The notes below the pieces were generated by a model. The model ran no database searches. It had not been told where the DNA came from and saw nothing but the letters and a program-made list of their open reading frames with translations. Below are positions 21,405 through 49,384 of a DNA stretch of 64,000 nt, in pieces. Position 1 is the stretch's first letter. Each line of letters begins with the position of its first letter. Origin of the DNA: Rickettsiales bacterium (GTDB lineage: Bacteria; Pseudomonadota; Alphaproteobacteria; Rickettsiales; UBA3002); NCBI GenBank assembly GCA_046154225.1, contig JBJXEM010000007.1, positions 859 through 64,858 on the forward strand. Reading direction: 5' to 3'. The position numbers were made by a program, and so were the translations under genes.

Positions 21405-21476
21405 TGTCATCCCGGCCTTGTGCCGGGATCTACCTTCCTTGAGAAAGATGGATCCCGGGATAACCCCGGGATGACA
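21405..21476. repeat. palindromic repeat family A, copy A1 (TGTCATCCCGG..CCGGGATC ... GATCCCGGG..CCCGGGATGACA)
   Basis: Two hairpin arms in inverted orientation. The architecture matches the copies at 32968, 42791 and 44278. Confidence 0.8.
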
Positions 21477-21488
21477 TTTTTCGGGCAA

Positions 21489-21629
21489 TTTATAGTCGAT
21501 TTGAATAAAAACTTTACAATTTTGTCATTCCCGCGAAGGCGGGAATCCACTTTTTCATGAAGGAGATTCCCGCCTTCGCGGGAATGACAAAATACATAGC
21601 ATGTACAAAATTTTCGAAACGACTATAAA
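21489..21629. mobile_element. MITE-like element family B, copy B1 (~141 bp)
   Basis: Terminal inverted repeats TTTATAGTCGATTTG / CGAAACGACTATAAA flank internal arms TTGTCATTCCCGCGAAGGCGGGAATC / GATTCCCGCCTTCGCGGGAATGACAA. The same element is inverted at 34910-35052 and diverged at 40168-40321. Confidence 0.8.
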
Positions 21630-21687
21630 TAGGTATTTATTGCCTAGTTAGTGGAGTTTTATTCCATAACTAGGCATTTTTTGCCTA
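21630..21687 (+). promoter_or_regulatory. two palindromic sites TAGGYA-N5-TGCCTA (putative enhancer-binding-protein UAS)
   Basis: TAGGTAtttatTGCCTA at 21630-21646 and TAGGCAtttttTGCCTA at 21671-21687, with centres 41 bp apart. They lie about 100-140 bp upstream of the sigma-54 -24 element. A related site sits upstream of flgB. Confidence 0.5.
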
Positions 21688-21776
21688 GTTTACATAATCC
21701 CTCAAATTTTAGCTAAATTTCAGCCATTTAACTGAAATCGCAGAAATCCGCCATTTTCACAGCTTTGGCCGACATT

Positions 21777-21796
21777 TGGCACGGCTGTTGCATAGT
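21777..21796 (+). promoter_or_regulatory. sigma-54 (RpoN) type promoter
   Basis: TGGCACggctgTTGCATAGT has exact -24 GG / -12 GC spacing. It lies about 45 nt upstream of ATG 21838. Confidence 0.7.
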
Positions 21797-21837
21797 CTTG
21801 GGCAAGCAGCAGCAAGCTGTACCAACAGGAGGTGAAT

Positions 21838-22053
21838 ATGACCAAACAACAACTCGAAGTGCACGCAACGATTCAATCCATGGCGGAAGAGCAAGTGCTG
21901 TTCCTGAAAAACCGCTACAAAATGAACCCCGAGGAAATCATCAGCCTCTACACCGGCGAGAGCAAGGCGAAAGCCACCTACTCCGACGCCATTCGCTCCA
22001 TCATGGTGTTCAACACCCAAAACGCAAAACAACACGGCTTCATCGCTTCGTAA
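21838..22053 (+). CDS. small hypothetical protein (71 aa)
   Basis: AGGAGG lies 5 nt upstream of the ATG (the track start 21832 is a GTG inside the SD spacer). A sigma-54 promoter lies upstream and an intrinsic terminator downstream. No homology recognised. Confidence 0.65.
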   Translation: MTKQQLEVHATIQSMAEEQVLFLKNRYKMNPEEIISLYTGESKAKATYSDAIRSIMVFNTQNAKQHGFIAS

Positions 22054-22153
22054 CGTTATCGGCGCCACCGGCGAAGTCGGTGGCAGAAAAGGCGAGTCGC
22101 CTCGGCAAGTAAGAATTCGGCGCATGGCGCCAGACGAACACACCATCCTCACT

Positions 22154-22187
22154 GGGTCACTTAGCAATAAGTGACCCATTTTTTTTT
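22154..22187 (+). terminator. rho-independent terminator
   Basis: GGGTCACT (22154-22161), an 8-nt loop, AGTGACCC (22170-22177), then A plus T9. Confidence 0.8.
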
Positions 22188-22214
22188 GACGCTCCTCGCG
22201 GATTCATGTATGTA
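22186..22214 (+). promoter_or_regulatory. sigma-70-like promoter of pilin-like gene 1
   Basis: TTGACG (22186-22191), a 17-nt spacer, TATGTA (22209-22214), with a T-run upstream. The predicted TSS coincides with ATG 22221, so the mRNA would be leaderless or near-leaderless. Confidence 0.5.
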
Positions 22215-22220
22215 AATTAT

Positions 22221-23036
22221 ATGTTTTTTCCTCAGCGCTCAGCCACCCAAGCCTTCAGCCTCGTTGAGCTTAGCATTGTGCTGGTAATCCTGGGTCTGCT
22301 CACGGGCGGCATTCTGGCCGGACAATCCCTAATCCGCGCGGCGGAGTTACGGGCAGTCACCACCGAATATGCGCGCTACGTCACCGCCGTGCAAAGCTTT
22401 CGTGACAAGTATTTTGCCATTCCCGGCGATATGCCCAACGCCTCACAGTTCTGGACCTCCATCCCCGGTACGGTGGGTTGCACTACCTCCACCACCTGCG
22501 GCAACGGTGATGGCGGCGGCACAATCACCCCCCCTGCGTTCGTGGCGAGCAGCTATTCCGAGAACCTTCAAGTGTGGAATGAACTGGCCTTGTCCGGGTT
22601 GATTGAAGGCAGCTATCCCGGCACCACCGGGCCGACAAACGGCGGCAATGGTGCGATGGATACCATTCCGGGCACTAACTCACCTAAATCTAAACTGTCG
22701 AATGCAGGTTGGGGCGTTTGGTGGGGTCCGCCCGGGTATCCGGGACAGCCGAATATCTATGCCGGTAACTTTGGCAATTCCCTTGTTTTTGGTGGGGTGT
22801 ATGGCGGTTTTGCGCCCATTGGCTCCCGCTTGAAGCCGGAGGAAGCGTGGAACATCGACACAAAGCTGGATGATGGCGTGCCCAATAAAGGCAAAGTCTA
22901 TGCAGGAAATCCCGGAACCTGCACGCTGGTATCGCCCGGTGGTGCCGCATCGGCAGGTACCAGCACGACGCCGGAAGTGTATAGCCTGCAAAGCAGTACG
23001 GTGGGCTGTGCGCTGTTTTTCCCCGGGGCGTTTTAA
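22221..23036 (+). CDS. prepilin-type N-terminal cleavage/methylation domain protein (pseudopilin/pilin-like), paralogue 1
   Basis: MFFPQRSATQA|FSLVELSIVLVILGLLTGGILAG has Glu at +5 and Ala instead of Gly at -1. The ORF-track start 22206 lies inside the predicted -10 box. Confidence 0.75.
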   Translation: MFFPQRSATQAFSLVELSIVLVILGLLTGGILAGQSLIRAAELRAVTTEYARYVTAVQSFRDKYFAIPGDMPNASQFWTSIPGTVGCTTSTTCGNGDGGGTITPPAFVASSYSENLQVWNELALSGLIEGSYPGTTGPTNGGNGAMDTIPGTNSPKSKLSNAGWGVWWGPPGYPGQPNIYAGNFGNSLVFGGVYGGFAPIGSRLKPEEAWNIDTKLDDGVPNKGKVYAGNPGTCTLVSPGGAASAGTSTTPEVYSLQSSTVGCALFFPGAF

Positions 23037-23094
23037 CTACAAAATCGTCGGATTCGCAGCGCGGCCGCTGTTCCAAATGCAGCATATGACTTTT

Positions 23095-23123
23095 TTGACA
23101 ATGTGCCCATACTAACGTATTAT
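23095..23123 (+). promoter_or_regulatory. sigma-70-like promoter of pilin-like gene 2
   Basis: TTGACA (23095-23100), a 17-nt spacer, TATTAT (23118-23123). ATG 23130 is 6 nt downstream and no SD is present. Confidence 0.55.
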
Positions 23124-23129
23124 TGTTAG

Positions 23130-23939
23130 ATGAATTCACTCCCACGCTCTGCCCGACTCGCCTTCAGCCTCGTTGAGCTGAGCATTGTGCTGGTGATTTT
23201 GGGTTTACTCACCGGCGGCATCCTCGCGGGACAATCCCTCATCCGTGCGGCGGAGTTGCGCAGCATCACCACGCAAATTAATCTCTACACCACCGCCGCA
23301 CAAACTTTCCGCGACAAATATTTTGCCATCCCCGGCGACATGAACAACGCGACCGCTTTTTGGGGGACCGATAATGTAGGCTGCCCCAATGGCGGCGGCA
23401 GCACGGGAACTTGCAATGGAGATGGAAACGGACAAATCGGATTAATAGCGAGTGGCTGCGAAGCGCAAGAGTTCTGGCGACAGCTTGCGCGTGCAGGCCT
23501 GATAGAGGGCAGCTATACACCTCTCACTGCATCCGCCTGTTATGACCTGCCAGTATTGGGCACAAACATTCCAAAAACAAAATTATCCAATGTCGGTTTT
23601 GGAATCGCTTACACAGCGAATATTGTGAGCAATGCGGGAGGCTCATTTCCAAGTAACTTCCTTTACACGGGCAGTTATGGAAATGCATTCTACATTGGTG
23701 GCAATAACATCAGTGGCGTCAATTATCTCCAAATGGTGCCCGCCTTCAAAGTGGAAGAAGCCTGGAACATTGACACCAAGATGGATGACGGGCGACCCGA
23801 TTTGGGAAGCGTTACTTCGGTATTATTAGGCCCCTACAATTCCGGCTGCGCCACCAGCGCCACCCCCGGTAGCGCCGCTTATAACCTGAGTAACACTGCC
23901 GGCAGCCAATGTTCGCTGGTGATAAAATCCGGGCTTTAA
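23130..23939 (+). CDS. prepilin-type N-terminal cleavage/methylation domain protein, paralogue 2
   Basis: MNSLPRSARLA|FSLVELSIVLVILGLLTGGILAGQSLIRAAELR is near-identical to paralogue 1 over the first ~70 aa. Shared C-terminal motif EEAWNIDTK(L/M)DDG. Confidence 0.8.
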   Translation: MNSLPRSARLAFSLVELSIVLVILGLLTGGILAGQSLIRAAELRSITTQINLYTTAAQTFRDKYFAIPGDMNNATAFWGTDNVGCPNGGGSTGTCNGDGNGQIGLIASGCEAQEFWRQLARAGLIEGSYTPLTASACYDLPVLGTNIPKTKLSNVGFGIAYTANIVSNAGGSFPSNFLYTGSYGNAFYIGGNNISGVNYLQMVPAFKVEEAWNIDTKMDDGRPDLGSVTSVLLGPYNSGCATSATPGSAAYNLSNTAGSQCSLVIKSGL

Positions 23940-40584: not shown

Positions 40585-41522
40585 CAGTTCACACCGAAGC
40601 TGCGAACGAGTGAGCCAGCCAGCATGTACCAGCCGTCGATCAGCACGAAGAAAATCACTTTGAACGGCAGCGAAATCACGACCGGCGGCAGCATCATCAT
40701 GCCCATCGCCAGCAGCACCGAGGCGATGACCATGTCGATGATGAGAAACGGTACGAAAATAAGGAACCCGATTTCAAACGAGCGGCGCAATTCGGAAATC
40801 ATGAAGGCCGGAATCACTACGGTGTAGGGCACTGTTTCGGGTGTTTCGACTTTGGTTTTGCTGATGTCAACAAACAGCTGCAAATCCTTCTCGCGCACAT
40901 GGTGCATCATGAAATCGTGGAATGGTGCGGCGGCAAGCTTCAGCCCTTCTTCCTCGCTGATTTTTTCGGCGATGAGGGGCTTGATGCCATCGTCGTAGGC
41001 TTTCTGGAACGTGGGAGTCATGATGAACATGGTGAGAAACAGCGCCAGCGCCACCAGCACTTGGTTGGGCGGGGTGTTTTGCGTGCCCATGGCGGTGCGC
41101 ACGAAGCTGAGCACAATGATAATGCGCATAAAGCTCGTCACCATAATCAGGATCGAAGGCGCGAGGCTCAGTACGGTCAGCAACACCAGCACCTGAATAA
41201 TCCGCGCGGTTGAGGACCCGCCGCCGCCAGCATCGAGGCTAAGGCTCTGTGCCTGCGCGGCTAGGGGCGACAGCAGCAGTGCCAACATGACTGCAGCAAA
41301 ACAGGACCCAACAAATGTCACTCTATATTTACCTCTCCCTTGGGAGAGGTCGAAATCATTCTGCATGATTTCGGGTGAGGGCGTGCGGCGCTTCAGAACG
41401 CCCTCACCCGAAATCCCCTCTAACTCCCCCCGCTTGCAGGGGGAGTTAGAGGGGATTTCGACCTCTCCCAAGGGAGAGGTAAAAAAGTTGGCTGCTTTGT
41501 TCATCAATGCTCGCACGTTCAT
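40584..41522 (-). CDS. fliP: flagellar export apparatus protein FliP (N-terminus carries or is preceded by a family D palindromic element)
   Basis: IIQVLVLLTVLSLAPSILIMVTSFMRIIIVLSFVRTAMGTQNTPPNQVLVALALFLTMFIMTP and later sequence are typical FliP. ATG 41522 forms an ATGA overlap with the fliO stop. An alternative GTG near 41306 lies 10 nt after GGGAGAGG. Confidence 0.85.
   Translation of the reverse strand: MNVRALMNKAANFFTSPLGEVEIPSNSPCKRGELEGISGEGVLKRRTPSPEIMQNDFDLSQGRGKYRVTFVGSCFAAVMLALLLSPLAAQAQSLSLDAGGGGSSTARIIQVLVLLTVLSLAPSILIMVTSFMRIIIVLSFVRTAMGTQNTPPNQVLVALALFLTMFIMTPTFQKAYDDGIKPLIAEKISEEEGLKLAAAPFHDFMMHHVREKDLQLFVDISKTKVETPETVPYTVVIPAFMISELRRSFEIGFLIFVPFLIIDMVIASVLLAMGMMMLPPVVISLPFKVIFFVLIDGWYMLAGSLVRSFGVN
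41329..41482. repeat. family D nested palindromic element, copy D2 (~154 bp)
   Basis: The outer arms TACCTCTCCCTTGGGAGAGGTCGAAAT / ATTTCGACCTCTCCCAAGGGAGAGGTA are reverse complements. Inner hairpins: ATTTCGGGTGAGGGCG..CGCCCTCACCCGAAAT and CCCCTCTAACTCCCCCCgcttgcaGGGGGAGTTAGAGGGG. Confidence 0.85.
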
Positions 41523-42124: not shown

Positions 42125-42458
42125 GCGATTCCTTTCCGCGCGGTTTCAAGGCGGCATTGGCCTGATACACGTAGGCGAGAATTTCGGCAACCGCCGCGAA
42201 TGCCTCGAGCGGAATGGGCGAATCGACGTCGACCAGCGACAGGATTTCCACCAGCTCCGCATCCTCGCGCACCTTGATGCCACGGTCGAACGCGATGGCC
42301 AAAATTTGCTCCGCCGCCGCCCCCCGGCCCGAGGCCAACACCATGGGCGCGTCATCCGTCGCGCGGTCGTAGCCCAACGCCACCGCTTGCGTGAACGCGG
42401 CAGGCTTTTTGCCACGGCTGTCGGTTTCGCGCAGGTCGATATCGGTTTTATCGGTCAT
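42111..42458 (-). CDS. FlhB C-terminal-domain-like protein (EscU/YscU/HrcU family fragment)
   Basis: APMVLASGRGAAAEQILAIAFDRGIKVREDAELVEILSLVDVDSPIPLEAFAAVAEILAYVY parallels the C-terminus of FlhB in this window (APKVVAKGADDVAARIRELATKNKVPIVRNPPLARILYETAELDEVIPLAHYQAVAKIIGYVY). It lacks the NPTH site. Confidence 0.75.
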   Translation of the reverse strand: MTDKTDIDLRETDSRGKKPAAFTQAVALGYDRATDDAPMVLASGRGAAAEQILAIAFDRGIKVREDAELVEILSLVDVDSPIPLEAFAAVAEILAYVYQANAALKPRGKESHAAP

Positions 42459-42712
42459 TTCGGCGCCTTTGGGGTATCGAGGAGCGACAAGTCGAACTCG
42501 CCCTCCATGAAATCCGCATCATCCCCACCGCCAGTGGCGGCCGCCATGTTTTCGGCCAGAATTTTGTCGTAAATTTCTTTTCGCAGCACGGTCGCTTCCG
42601 GTGGAAAATCGAAGCCGATTTTCACCGTTTTGCCGCGCACCTCAACGACGGTGAGCTCAATCGAGTTATTGATAACTATCGACTCGCCAATCTTGCGCGA
42701 TAAATACAGCAT
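42455..42712 (-). CDS. csrA: carbon storage regulator CsrA
   Basis: MLYLSRKIGESIVINNSIELTVVEVRGKTVKIGFDFPPEATVLRKEIYDKI. ATGA overlap with the next gene. Confidence 0.85.
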   Translation of the reverse strand: MLYLSRKIGESIVINNSIELTVVEVRGKTVKIGFDFPPEATVLRKEIYDKILAENMAAATGGGDDADFMEGEFDLSLLDTPKAPK

Positions 42713-42790
42713 GAAGACCTACTGGTGACTGCGTGACCTACTGGTAGATATGGCTTAACACGAATAGTGCTATTTCCGCCAGCGAGAATT

Positions 42791-42876
42791 TGTCATCCCG
42801 GGCTGTGCCGGAATCTGCCGTACGACGCACGCATTGCTTGTTGTTGCGCGGATCTCGGGACAAGCCCGGGATGACA
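42791..42876. repeat. palindromic repeat family A, copy A3
   Basis: TGTCATCCCGGGCTGTGCCGGAATC ... GATCTCGGGACAAGCCCGGGATGACA. Confidence 0.8.
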
Positions 42877-42910: not shown

Positions 42911-42927
42911 TAGGTAAAAATTACCTA
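42911..42927 (+). promoter_or_regulatory. palindromic site TAGGTA-N5-TACCTA (putative UAS of flgB promoter)
   Basis: Perfect palindrome about 80 bp upstream of the -24 element. It has the same half-site family as 21630-21687. Confidence 0.45.
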
Positions 42928-42997
42928 TATTACACCTATACGAGATGGGGCGCTTTCACCCTGCATGTATCGGCTAGGCTTCCGCGTTTATTGTAAC

Positions 42998-43017
42998 TGG
43001 CATTGTGTTTGCATAGT
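42998..43017 (+). promoter_or_regulatory. sigma-54 type promoter upstream of flgB
   Basis: TGGCATtgtgtTTGCATAGT. The spacing and extended -12 (TTGCATAGT) are identical to the promoter at 21777. Confidence 0.65.
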
Positions 43018-46783: not shown

Positions 46784-47770
46784 ATGCGTTTCAATGAAAA
46801 CGAGTACCACGATCCGTCCCGGCTAGATTTTGTGCCGAGGGAGTATCGACGCCAGTTCGTGCGTATGATTGCGGCTTTTACCGTGTGCCTGCTGGCGCTG
46901 CTGGTGGTTGGGTTTATCGGCACCATCCGCAACAGTGGCTTTTCACCGCTGCTCTCACTGTTCATCATCATCTTTATTTCCATGTATGCGCTCATTCGCA
47001 AGCAGCGCGACATCGACCTCGTGGTCAACACTGAATACCAGAACATGTTATTTTCGCAGGGCGTGGCCCTTGGCAGCAGCTTTTACATGTTCGTGCGGAT
47101 GGACGGCACCATCGCCTATTCCAGCGATGGCTTGCGCACATTATTTCCCATGCTGGCCGGTGGCGAGGCGCAGGCGCTCGCATCGGTACTCGAGCATGGT
47201 GGCATATTAGCCCCCGACCGCGATCGCCTGATGAAAGCCATCACCACCTGCAGCGCCGACCGCATGGTGTTCCCCATTCCCGCCAATAACGACAAAAAAG
47301 AGTATGTCATCACCGTCGACCCCTTGCCGCGCCCGGCAGGCATGCTGCTGGTGCGTGGTCGCGAATTCCGCGATAATCGCTCGGGCACCCAATTACTTCC
47401 CGACGTGTTACGCTCCACCACCACCGAAAAGCTCGACCACATGCTGGCGCGCAGCCCTGTGGGCCATTATACCGCCGATGGTTTCGGCCAGATCGAATAC
47501 GCAAACCGTGCGTTCGAGGAGCTTTTAGGCTACGCACCTGGTGAAGCCACCGAGCGTAAACTCACCCTCGCCGAAGTGATTCACGCCCTGCATGGCATCC
47601 CCTACGACGCCGAGGCGGGACTAATGGAAACCTCCGGCGATGCAAGCCTGCGCCGCAAACAAGGCGGGCAAGTGAGCGTGATGTTATTTCAGAGCCTAAT
47701 CCGCGATGCTGCAGGCAAGCCCACTGCCGCCACCGGCAGCATTCTGCCGTTCAGCGCAACGCGAGAATAG
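46784..47770 (+). CDS. membrane-anchored PAS-like sensor protein (328 aa)
   Basis: Two N-terminal TM segments. There is a PAS-like segment (FGQIEYANRAFEELLGYAPGE). It is adjacent to the hybrid kinase. Confidence 0.6.
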   Translation: MRFNENEYHDPSRLDFVPREYRRQFVRMIAAFTVCLLALLVVGFIGTIRNSGFSPLLSLFIIIFISMYALIRKQRDIDLVVNTEYQNMLFSQGVALGSSFYMFVRMDGTIAYSSDGLRTLFPMLAGGEAQALASVLEHGGILAPDRDRLMKAITTCSADRMVFPIPANNDKKEYVITVDPLPRPAGMLLVRGREFRDNRSGTQLLPDVLRSTTTEKLDHMLARSPVGHYTADGFGQIEYANRAFEELLGYAPGEATERKLTLAEVIHALHGIPYDAEAGLMETSGDASLRRKQGGQVSVMLFQSLIRDAAGKPTAATGSILPFSATRE

Positions 47771-47776
47771 CACGCC

Positions 47777-49384
47777 ATGTCAACGCCATTTGAATTTACC
47801 GCCAGCAAGCCCACCGGGCTCGACATCAACAGTTTCATTGAGTTTTCTCCTATCGCGGTGATCCGCCTGAGCGCGCAGGGCGAAATTGTCGAGGCCAACA
47901 GTGCCTTCCTCCAATTGATGAACCACGCGTTGCCGGCGGACCGCCCCGTCACCTTCGCCGAACTCATCGAACCCGAAGACCGCATCCGCTTCCTCGATGT
48001 GTTCCGCCGCATGATGGCAGGCGAGAAAGTCGCGCCGTTGTCGCTTAGCCTTCTGTCGCCGGGCGACACTGAAATGCGGGTCGTGTACACTTACATGGGC
48101 GTCATGCATCCGGGCGGGCCGCATGCGCCGGTGCCTATGCTGCACATGATCGACCAGACCGAGCAGAAAAACCTTGAGCACCGCTTCGCCCACAGCCAGA
48201 AAATGCAGGCCGTGGGTCAGCTGGCGGGCGGCGTGGCGCATGATTTCAACAATCTGCTCACCGCCATGATCGGCTTTTGCGATTTACTGCTCATGCGCCA
48301 CCCGGCAGGCGACCCGAGCTTTGCCGACATCATGCAAATCAAACAAAACGCCAACCGCGCCGCGAATTTGGTGCGCCAGTTACTTGCGTTTTCGCGCCGC
48401 CAAACGCTGCAGCCTAAAATGGTCGACCTGACGGATGTATTGGCGGAATTATCGAACCTCATCCGCCGCCTGATTGGCGAAAACATTCAAATGAACATGC
48501 TGCATGGCCGCGATTTGGGCATGGTGCGCGCCGACCAGGGCCAGCTCGAGCAGGTCATCATCAACCTCGCAGTTAACGCGCGCGACGCGATGAAAGAAGG
48601 CGGCGTGCTTTCCATCCGCACCAGCGTGACGCGCATTGAGTCGATGGAATCGCTACCGCGTCACCTCATCGCGCCCACCGAGGACGAAGCCATCGTGCCC
48701 GGCGAGTATATTCTGGTCGAAGTCGAGGATTCCGGCACCGGCATTCCGCCCGAAATCGTCAAAAACATTTTTGAGCCGTTTTTCTCGACCAAAGAAGTCG
48801 GCTCGGGCACCGGGCTTGGACTTTCCACGTGCTACGGCATCATCAAACAATCCGGCGGCTATATTTTTGTCGATACCGAAATCGGCCGCGGCACCAACTT
48901 CCACCTCTACTTCAAACGCTACGAGCAGGCGGAAACCACCAAGCCCGCCGAAACACACGACGACAAAAGCAGCGGCGACCTCACCGGCCGCGCCACCGTG
49001 CTGCTGGTCGAAGACGAAACGCCCGTGCGTATTTTCGCCGCCCGCGCGCTGCGCAACAAAGGCTACGAAGTGCTCGAAGCCGATTCCGGCGAGAACGCCA
49101 TCGAAGTATTCACCAGCCATGACGGCCCGATTGATGTTATTATTTCTGACGTGGTAATGCCCGGTGTCAACGGCCCAAAAATGATCGAGTCATTATATGA
49201 GTCTCACGCTACACGCATGGATTCCATCAAAGTTATTTTCATTTCTGGTTATGCGGAAGACGCATTTGTCGATACGTACGGAACCGAACGCAGCTTTAAT
49301 TTCCTACCAAAACCATTCACGCTTAAACAGTTAGCGAGTAAAGTTAAAGAAGTGCTGGAGCTTGAAGAAAAAAGTGAACATTAG
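47777..49384 (+). CDS. hybrid sensor histidine kinase/response regulator (PAS-HisKA-HATPase-REC)
   Basis: H-box GGVAHDFNNLLTAMIGF, N-box NLAVNARDAM, DSGTGIP, GTGLGLS, and a receiver domain LLVEDE...IISDVVMPG...KPF. Confidence 0.9.
   Translation: MSTPFEFTASKPTGLDINSFIEFSPIAVIRLSAQGEIVEANSAFLQLMNHALPADRPVTFAELIEPEDRIRFLDVFRRMMAGEKVAPLSLSLLSPGDTEMRVVYTYMGVMHPGGPHAPVPMLHMIDQTEQKNLEHRFAHSQKMQAVGQLAGGVAHDFNNLLTAMIGFCDLLLMRHPAGDPSFADIMQIKQNANRAANLVRQLLAFSRRQTLQPKMVDLTDVLAELSNLIRRLIGENIQMNMLHGRDLGMVRADQGQLEQVIINLAVNARDAMKEGGVLSIRTSVTRIESMESLPRHLIAPTEDEAIVPGEYILVEVEDSGTGIPPEIVKNIFEPFFSTKEVGSGTGLGLSTCYGIIKQSGGYIFVDTEIGRGTNFHLYFKRYEQAETTKPAETHDDKSSGDLTGRATVLLVEDETPVRIFAARALRNKGYEVLEADSGENAIEVFTSHDGPIDVIISDVVMPGVNGPKMIESLYESHATRMDSIKVIFISGYAEDAFVDTYGTERSFNFLPKPFTLKQLASKVKEVLELEEKSEH

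Follow-up and report, generated by a model that had tools for sequence, protein, structure and literature searches.

A conserved sigma-54 promoter with FlbD-type upstream sites probably links a 71-residue protein family of uncultured Alphaproteobacteria to the flagellar regulon

In a stretch of 64,000 nucleotides (nt) from a Rickettsiales bacterium (GenBank assembly GCA_046154225.1, contig JBJXEM010000007.1; hereafter the window), a gene encoding a protein of 71 amino acids (aa) raises the question of how it is switched on and to which cellular programme its product belongs. The gene is preceded by a sigma-54 promoter and two palindromic upstream sites, a combination that recurs ahead of the flagellar gene flgB. 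Based on these elements, their conservation among relatives and their presence at further flagellar genes, the locus is probably a complete transcription unit under enhancer-dependent sigma-54 control, of the type known from Caulobacter class III/IV flagellar genes. Its features, numbered from the first letter of the window, are as follows.

21630..21646, no strand assigned: distal upstream activator site, an ftr-like palindrome TAGGTAtttatTGCCTA with the half-sites GGTA and TGCC.
21671..21687, no strand assigned: proximal upstream activator site TAGGCAtttttTGCCTA, a perfect GGCA-N5-TGCC dyad corresponding to the published FlbD/ftr core.
21718..21757, plus strand: candidate bending region for integration host factor (IHF) in the interval between enhancer and promoter, comprising TTTCAGCCATTTA and AATCCGCCATTTT.
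21777..21792, plus strand: sigma-54 promoter TGGCACggctgTTGCA, with the -24 GG at 21778-79 and the -12 GC at 21790-91.
21806..21820, plus strand: short 5'-end hairpin GCAG-cagcaag-CUGU inside the conserved leader CAAGCGnnnnnAAGGCGC (21803-21825).
21827..21832, plus strand: Shine-Dalgarno (SD) sequence AGGAGG, extended to AGGAGGUGA, 5 nt before the ATG and kept in orthologues.
21838..22053, plus strand: coding sequence of the soluble 71-aa protein, predicted to form three helices and belonging to an undescribed family (ATG at 21838, stop codon at 22051-53).
22054..22152, plus strand: structured 3' untranslated region (3'UTR) with two conserved motifs, CTCGGCAAG (22101-09) and AACACACCATCCTCA (22137-51).
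22153..22187, plus strand: intrinsic terminator with an 11-base-pair (bp) stem and a 4-nt loop (22153-22178), followed by T9 (22179-87).

Direct reading of the window showed that TGGCAC-ggctg-TTGCATAGT spans positions 21777-21796, where an earlier note on this DNA had placed a sigma-54 promoter with exact -24/-12 spacing. Its presence exceeds chance expectation: exact matches to TGGCAY-N5-TTGCW occurred twice in the window as compared to 0.22 expected, a number reached by 2 of 100 shuffled sequences. For the palindrome TAGGYA-N5-TRCCTA, three exact matches were found as compared to 0.00 expected, and none of 100 shuffles contained even one. All three are located upstream of two sigma-54 promoters, namely those of the small gene and of flgB. 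Ahead of the small gene, 41 bp separate the centres of the two palindromes, and their distances to the downstream -24 GG amount to 140 and 99 bp, so that the coordinates and distances (100-140 bp) proposed earlier were borne out. Matches resembling sigma-70 promoters stayed at chance level, with two found and 1.1 expected.

For comparison, 24 loci from species-representative genomes and further loci from large contigs were fetched, and 26 upstream regions were aligned. Both palindromes, the -24/-12 element and the SD sequence were kept across these regions, the intervening sequence being unalignable. The conserved blocks follow each other in the order of two GGCA-N5-TGCC palindromes, CA...TTA, TTGGCAYG-N4-TTGCWT, the leader CAAGCG...GCGC and the SD sequence. 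The sigma-54 element was present in all 26 regions at about -60 to -70 from the ATG, twice with GTGCA at -12. Palindromes of the orthologues mostly read GGCA...TGCC, and the distal site of the window aligns with a conserved GGCA-N5-TGCC site of the orthologues. In 11 loci, where both palindromes meet the strict pattern, their spacing amounts to 39-41 bp. Within 187 kb of fetched related loci, palindrome and promoter motif co-occurred only before the orthologous small gene, and over 251 kb (window plus fetched loci) they were found together only at the small gene and flgB. These results support the prediction that promoter and upstream sites constitute a conserved sigma-54 promoter of the enhancer type. 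Furthermore, all five distant family members (30-49% identity, other gene neighbourhoods) have a canonical sigma-54 promoter at an upstream distance of 48-60 nt from the start codon, on which basis the predicted sigma-54 dependence is an old and stable property of the gene family. The distant member L028 also carries two GGCA-N5-TGCC sites, and in L031 a related palindrome is located downstream of the promoter.

In the loci L001, L002, L006, L009, L013-L018, L021 and L025, the sequence YCATCC(A/C)C was additionally observed 5-10 nt upstream of the -24 element. It is missing from the window at 21762-21776 and shares CCATCC with the 3'UTR motif described below.

Alternatively, the palindromes could serve a conventional repressor or activator as operators, or else represent remnants of repeats resembling repetitive extragenic palindromic (REP) sequences or miniature inverted-repeat transposable elements (MITEs). 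Such repeats are indeed present in the window.

21405-21476, 21519-21593 and 42791-42876: REP-like inverted repeats, absent from the orthologous loci.

The copies at 21405-21476 and 21519-21593 are located immediately upstream of the palindromes, and one weak sigma-70-like match overlaps the proximal site. An origin or function of this kind is nevertheless highly improbable, since the palindromes are kept at a fixed distance from the sigma-54 promoter in loci devoid of REP-like elements, their sequence does not resemble the REP arms, and sigma-70-like matches do not exceed chance. Moreover, the palindromes are the only conserved upstream sites, and activity of any sigma-54 promoter requires an enhancer-binding protein (EBP). 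Both the small gene and flgB have REP-like repeats (arms TGTCATCCCGG... and GTCATTCCCGCGAAGGCGGGAAT...) inserted directly ahead of their enhancer regions; because the orthologous loci lack these insertions, the intergenic region is longer in the window.

Between enhancer and promoter, TTTCAGCCATTTA (21718-30) deviates from the IHF consensus WATCARNNNNTTR by one mismatch and AATCCGCCATTTT (21745-57) by two. The latter occupies the position conserved in orthologues, the one-mismatch site being located 27 nt upstream of this homologous position. An IHF-like match with at most one mismatch was detected in 61% of the orthologous promoters as compared to 14% of shuffles, and in 11 of 23 orthologous promoters it starts 31-32 nt upstream of TGGCA.

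Since the -12 GC is located at 21790-91, transcription is predicted to start near 21802-21804, which would give an mRNA of about 385 nt, in which leader, reading frame and 3'UTR account for 35, 216 and 134 nt, respectively. For the leader hairpin, the folding energy of which is weak, a compensatory change in at least one sequence was observed in three of the four predicted pairs. The AGGAGG that had been reported 5 nt before the ATG at 21838 is present, and compared with this SD sequence, 26 other genes of the window have far weaker ribosome-binding sites. The hairpin and T9 terminator described earlier was likewise found; it was seen in 25 of 29 loci, and compensatory changes affected eight of nine stem pairs among 22 orthologues. 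Prepilin-like genes downstream of the small gene vary in number (two in the window, one in L026, none in L025). A conserved, covarying terminator together with varying downstream genes therefore indicates that the small gene stands alone, which supports its description as monocistronic. The two prepilin-type genes of the window (22188-23939) encode N-terminal methylation motifs and lie about 20-35 nt past the terminator, with no promoter of their own seen; transcription started at the sigma-54 promoter may read through into them.

The second combination of palindrome and sigma-54 promoter was found between csrA and flgB.

42911..42927, no strand assigned: ftr-like palindrome TAGGTAaaaatTACCTA in the csrA-flgB intergenic region, 70 nt upstream of the flgB sigma-54 consensus.
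42974..42980, plus strand: half-site CTAGGCT, located between palindrome and promoter of flgB, with CTAGGC(T/A) at the same place in the orthologous loci L114-L117.
42998..43013, plus strand: sigma-54 promoter TGGCATtgtgtTTGCA of the flgB operon, 57 nt before flgB and conserved in L114-L117.
42455-42712, minus strand: csrA, encoding a long acidic C-terminal extension and heading an operon divergent from flgB.

Here, TGGCATtgtgtTTGCATAGT occupies positions 42998-43017 ahead of flgB (43055), which heads the gene run flgB-flgC-fliE-fliQ-fliR-flhB. The four orthologous loci L114-L117 were chosen by protein similarity and not by motif, their FlgB proteins showing 90, 67, 52 and 54% identity to that of the window. 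All four share the CTAGGC half-site; their palindromes are located at -139 to -165 and their sigma-54 promoters at -51 to -79. Including the window, palindrome and sigma-54 element thus precede flgB in five of five clade genomes. The earlier note had proposed that flgB shares the extended promoter and the half-site family of the small gene. The arrangement of palindrome and sigma-54 promoter proved to be conserved, but the shared extension did not: a common 'AGT' or 'ATAGT' extension of the -12 element is not retained in orthologues of either gene, and the 'AGT' at both promoters of the window is probably a coincidence.

In Caulobacter, FlbD binds ftr sites and activates RpoN-dependent middle and late flagellar genes (PMC3930126); its site is quoted in a study of Desulfovibrio response regulators (PMC3333781) as CCCGGCAxxxxxTGCCGGG. 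The Desulfovibrio FlbD homologue DVU1063 recognises GGCAxxxxTGCC, and its targets include flagellar genes (PMC3333781). Core and spacing of the proximal site TAGGCAtttttTGCCTA are exactly those of the published FlbD site. Its flanks are AT-rich, not GC-rich, as would be expected at a genomic G+C content of 57%.

In order to recover loci other than the small gene, metagenomes were scanned with the pattern TAGGYA-N5-TRCCTA-N(50-80)-TGGCAY-N5-TTGC, the gap being set to skip the 89-102-nt spacing usual for the small gene. The scan returned 79 loci with 35-69% G+C, a range according to which they stem from several lineages. A flagellar gene is located directly downstream in 14 of them, namely flgB (six loci), a flagellin or flgL-like gene (four), fliK (three) and flgF (one), and three further loci contain members of the 71-aa family. 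The locus L090, on a contig of about 1 Mb, features three sigma-54 promoters, each preceded at about 60-70 bp by a palindrome of its own; flagellin genes follow at least two of these promoters, and the locus adjoins flaF and flbT, which encode flagellin regulators of the Caulobacter type. On this cis evidence, i.e. the FlbD core and the recurrence at flgB, flagellin, fliK and flgF, the previously suggested membership of the small gene in the motility regulon is well supported, as is its predicted control by an FlbD-class activator and sigma-54. The accompanying proposal that one EBP of the FlbD/FleQ class controls both genes is accordingly narrowed: the cis elements argue for the FlbD class, whereas they do not point to FleQ. 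Membership in the regulon says nothing yet on the role of the protein.

Several observations weigh against this assignment. The IHF-like match in the window is weak (one to two mismatches), the distal site contains the half-site GGTA, and the flgB site reads GGTA/TACC and not GGCA/TGCC as published. The metagenome scan was performed without a control pattern, and flagellar genes are common sigma-54 targets anyway; the scan also matched unrelated sigma-54 systems, namely pspA, type IV pilin and Usg-like genes as well as a separate lineage. Signature motifs of FlbD, of other EBPs or of RpoN were found neither in the 64-kb window, which covers part of a 193-kb contig, nor in the fetched clade loci. 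Moreover, the neighbours of the small gene are non-flagellar (astE/aspA-like, mscS, hisI, virB8/9), and no observation ties the 71-aa protein itself physically to the flagellum. An EBP with the GAFTGA motif near a flagellin-like gene was encountered only in the unrelated locus L102. Because EBP and rpoN genes were unseen in clade DNA, the trans-acting factors are assumed, and we infer the identity of the activator from its sites.

Part of these observations would also suit another sigma-54 activator, whether TacA-like, NtrC-like or lineage-specific, that binds the palindromes and serves a wider developmental or physiological programme, in which the flgB operon would be just one component and the protein would have no motility role. 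In Caulobacter, GAFTGA, the motif contacting sigma-54, occurs only in FlbD and TacA, and the latter has non-flagellar targets (bioRxiv 10.1101/2023.06.06.543975). Such an activator would agree with the non-flagellar surroundings of the small gene, including a nearby amtB, with the occurrence of the scan pattern at Usg-like, pspA and pilin genes and with the failure to detect flbD in the window and the fetched clade loci. It is nonetheless quite unlikely, given that core and spacing equal those of the published FlbD site (PMC3333781) and that several lineages carry the element ahead of flgB, flgF, fliK and flagellin genes, in some cases at loci with flaF and flbT.

Among the scan results, about 25 of the loci L033-L110 (e.g., L033, L049, L071, L105) belong to a separate wetland lineage, in which TAGGTAAAGTTTACCTA is located 60-72 nt upstream of sigma-54 promoters that stand ahead of response-regulator, EBP and PilZ genes. 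Another EBP that recognises a similar dyad probably controls these loci as its regulon. In L032, L040, L084 and L086, Usg-like genes (PF06233) of 89-90 aa are preceded by TAGGCACTTCCTGCCTA and a sigma-54 promoter.

For control by an FlbD-like activator, the preferred reading, the following mechanism is proposed. Dimers of the EBP would bind the two ftr-type palindromes (GGCA-N5-TGCC), whose centres precede the predicted start by about 125 and 165 bp and face the same side of the helix. The DNA would then be bent, probably by IHF, which would bring the activator to sigma-54 RNA polymerase in the closed complex on TGGCAC-N5-TTGCA, and ATP hydrolysis by the activator would then open the promoter. 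The product would be a monocistronic mRNA with a 5' hairpin, a maximal SD sequence, the 71-codon frame, a structured 3'UTR and an intrinsic terminator. Because the flgB operon carries the same site and promoter type, the small gene would be switched on together with flagellar rod and export genes.

Caulobacter has been known since the 1990s to combine sigma-54, FlbD, ftr sites and IHF in this regulatory logic. Like the class III/IV promoters of Caulobacter crescentus (flbG/flaN, fljK, fljL), the locus combines a -24/-12 promoter with a candidate IHF site between enhancer and promoter, and the same element recurs at genes for rod and flagellin proteins. A further common trait are dyad ftr-type sites (core GGCA-N5-TGCC) at a distance of about 100 bp (PMC3333781, PMC3930126). 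Unlike the Caulobacter ftr sites, those reported here are flanked by TA...TA and not by CCC...GGG, and some half-sites read GGTA. Further differences to Caulobacter are that the flgB operon, with the export-gate genes fliQ, fliR and flhB, appears to be under sigma-54/ftr control itself, that the target is a non-flagellar-looking small protein encoded outside any flagellar cluster, and that FlbD was not found in the window and the fetched clade loci. The DVU1063 regulon of Desulfovibrio vulgaris resembles the system in its sigma-54-dependent regulator and GGCA...TGCC dyad, and besides flagellar genes its targets comprise hypothetical and regulatory proteins (PMC3333781). It differs in the spacing (N4 there, N5 here), belongs to another phylum, and its targets show no homology to the 71-aa family. 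While the regulation itself is of a well-known kind, namely that of Caulobacter class III/IV genes, the target family, the position in the flagellar hierarchy and the 3'UTR motif are new.

Concerning the hierarchy, the divergent flgB/fliO promoters of Caulobacter and Rhodobacter are controlled by CtrA (PMC6180460). In a more distant GC-rich relative (L118, 9775-10000), the same intergenic region contains two TTAA-N7-TTAA boxes of the CtrA type without a sigma-54 promoter; in the window, no such box was found. Judged by sigma-54/ftr elements at flgB here and CtrA-type boxes in L118, the flagellar hierarchy has apparently been rewired, with flgB and the export-gate operon under sigma-54/ftr control in this clade and under CtrA-type control in the distant relative. 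A sigma-54/ftr promoter ahead of the flgB-fliE-fliQR-flhB operon would represent a new position of these genes in the flagellar hierarchy.

The small gene had initially been labelled an ORFan, which is wrong: it belongs to a conserved family of uncultured Alphaproteobacteria. A search of 5.8 billion proteins retrieved 158 clusters with identities of 73-100%, nearly all of precisely 71 aa, originating from metagenome-assembled genomes (MAGs) that carry the label Rickettsiales, Alphaproteobacteria or, probably in error, Azospirillum. When 1.84 billion representatives were searched exhaustively with a profile, 37 clusters at the 50% level were obtained, with lengths of 57-98 aa save for one weak match to a 424-aa protein (E = 2e-5) and with the signature AEEQVLFL...M.P.EII..YTG....A...DA...I..FN....GF. 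At 90% identity, the family of about 70-aa proteins comprises no fewer than 190 clusters, and all of its members stem from MAGs of uncultured Alphaproteobacteria. No cultured organism was present among the distant family members, and a word-index search seeded with these members returned only close relatives among the listed matches.

Comparison of 24 orthologues revealed 3655, 2795 and 9181 differences at codon positions 1, 2 and 3, respectively, and 6327 synonymous versus 4555 non-synonymous codon changes. From the third-position excess and the synonymous excess it follows that the frame is translated and under purifying selection. The idea of an exceptionally conserved protein was dropped, its identity of about 80% being close to that of the neighbouring AstE-like protein (78%) and HisI (85%); the impression arose from comparison with FlgB, which simply evolves faster. 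Gene neighbourhood as a functional clue also led to a dead end: the clade keeps the synteny amtB, mscS, astE-like gene, small gene, hisI and virB9/8, which is non-flagellar and differs in distant members.

Structure prediction with AlphaFold2 resulted in a high-confidence model of three helices (residues 3-27, 31-39 and 48-65), with a mean predicted local distance difference test (pLDDT) score of 92.7. No significant match to the 71-aa protein was obtained in searches of Pfam, NCBIfam, PHROGs and PADLOC, and individual Pfam scans of 36 family members gave no consistent match. Likewise, a profile search of PDB sequences returned nothing below E = 0.33, and a Foldseek comparison of the AlphaFold2 model with the PDB gave no fold match (best E-value 3.5). 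The protein contains neither a signal peptide nor a membrane segment. Many of its invariant residues are charged and located on helix 1 and the turn (E17, E18, Q19, K24, R26, K28), which suggests an interaction surface. Since the protein is well folded, lacks signal and membrane segments and exposes invariant charged residues, it might work in the cytoplasm as a regulator or adaptor within the flagellar programme, acting through a conserved binding partner; this is our best guess, at slightly less than even odds. We do not think that it is a structural or secreted part of the flagellum. The long-tailed CsrA encoded divergently from flgB would be a speculative partner.

The role considered here resembles the partner-binding mode of small flagellar regulators and chaperones. 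Like FliX, FlbT, FlaF, FlgM, FliS, FliT, FlgN and FliW, the protein is small, cytoplasmic, mostly helical and, as predicted from its promoter, co-expressed with flagellar genes. However, it resembles neither these proteins nor CsrA in sequence or profile and has no PDB fold match; Pfam and NCBIfam, in which it found no match, hold models at least for FlaF, FlbT, FliJ and CsrA. With 71 aa, it reaches about half the length encoded by the flaF and flbT genes of L090 and L102 (130-145 aa). It also differs from FlgM, an intrinsically disordered protein, in being well folded. For a conserved family of small proteins without annotation, domain or structural relative, the predicted regulon provides a biological setting that can be tested.

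The 3'UTR showed a folding z-score of -4.56 relative to shuffles and contains the motif ACACACCAUCC, which resembles the anti-SD end of 16S rRNA. The anti-SD-like motif AACACACCATCCTCA is located directly before the terminator, and its 11-nt core ACACACCATCC (22138-48) is identical in 22 of 22 orthologues, although the adjoining stem has diverged. In the minimum-energy and centroid folds, the core is unpaired and positioned between stem-loops and the terminator. Pairing of the motif with its own ribosome-binding site reached a median of -10.9 kcal/mol as compared to -4.2 kcal/mol for 26 other genes of the window. Such an invariant motif suggests an additional RNA function, and the anatomy of the 3'UTR makes it a candidate for a 3'UTR-derived small RNA (sRNA) or an element for cis pairing between 3'UTR and 5'UTR.

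Taken further, the main functional product of the locus could be the RNA itself. A dual-function transcript, with ACACACCAUCCUCA, the terminator hairpin and the U-tail as its active parts, would either pair in trans with ribosome-binding sites as an sRNA or pair in cis with its own SD sequence, and would add to the FlbD/sigma-54 control proposed above. Invariance of the core beside a stem with compensatory changes, its unpaired state within a significantly folded 3'UTR, its anti-SD resemblance and the strong pairing with its own ribosome-binding site all favour such an RNA. Still, this reading appears rather unlikely. The coding frame is clearly under purifying selection, so that the protein matters, and the strong pairing is largely due to the unusually long SD sequence. 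In addition, trans targets in the window were found only within coding sequences, with no convincing one at a start codon, an Rfam search of the UTRs matched no family, and the motif is missing from distant family members as well as from L008 and L024.

Comparable elements have been described in other bacteria: sigma-28-dependent, UTR-derived flagellar RNAs of Escherichia coli include MotR, FliX, FlgO and UhpU, and the icaR 3'UTR of Staphylococcus aureus contains an anti-SD element. A conserved, unpaired, C-rich motif directly before the terminator of a predicted flagellar-regulon mRNA resembles these RNAs by analogy only. Unlike the E. coli UTR-derived RNAs, the transcript is predicted to depend on sigma-54 and not on sigma-28. 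As an undescribed and invariant element, the motif is a concrete candidate for an RNA regulator inside a flagellar-regulon mRNA. Combining both products, an FlbD/sigma-54 transcript might act as a dual-output flagellar module that provides a partner-binding protein, possibly directed at CsrA, together with an anti-SD-like regulatory RNA repressing its own or other mRNAs. This combination is unlikely; if true, it would tie translation control to flagellar assembly in a clade in which the flgB and export-gate operon has apparently moved from CtrA to FlbD control.

Further observations concern the surroundings of flgB. The divergent operon is ordered csrA, flhB-C-like gene, unknown gene, fliO and fliP. 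In the csrA leader (42716-42750), the sequence CACCAGUAGGUC forms a tandem repeat of two copies that overlaps the ribosome-binding site and is kept in L115-L117. Two matches to the Rfam family whalefall-1 RNA on opposite strands (46.9 and 43.2 bits) were detected at 41329-41482, between fliO and the real start of fliP; they consist of nested perfect inverted repeats and have the appearance of a REP/MITE-type insertion. Finally, according to NCBIfam CckA models, the cell-cycle kinase CckA is apparently split into a 328-aa PAS protein (46784-47770) and a 535-aa kinase-receiver protein (47777-49384). Because L114 contains a separate PAS gene of the same length, this split is probably real and not a sequencing error.

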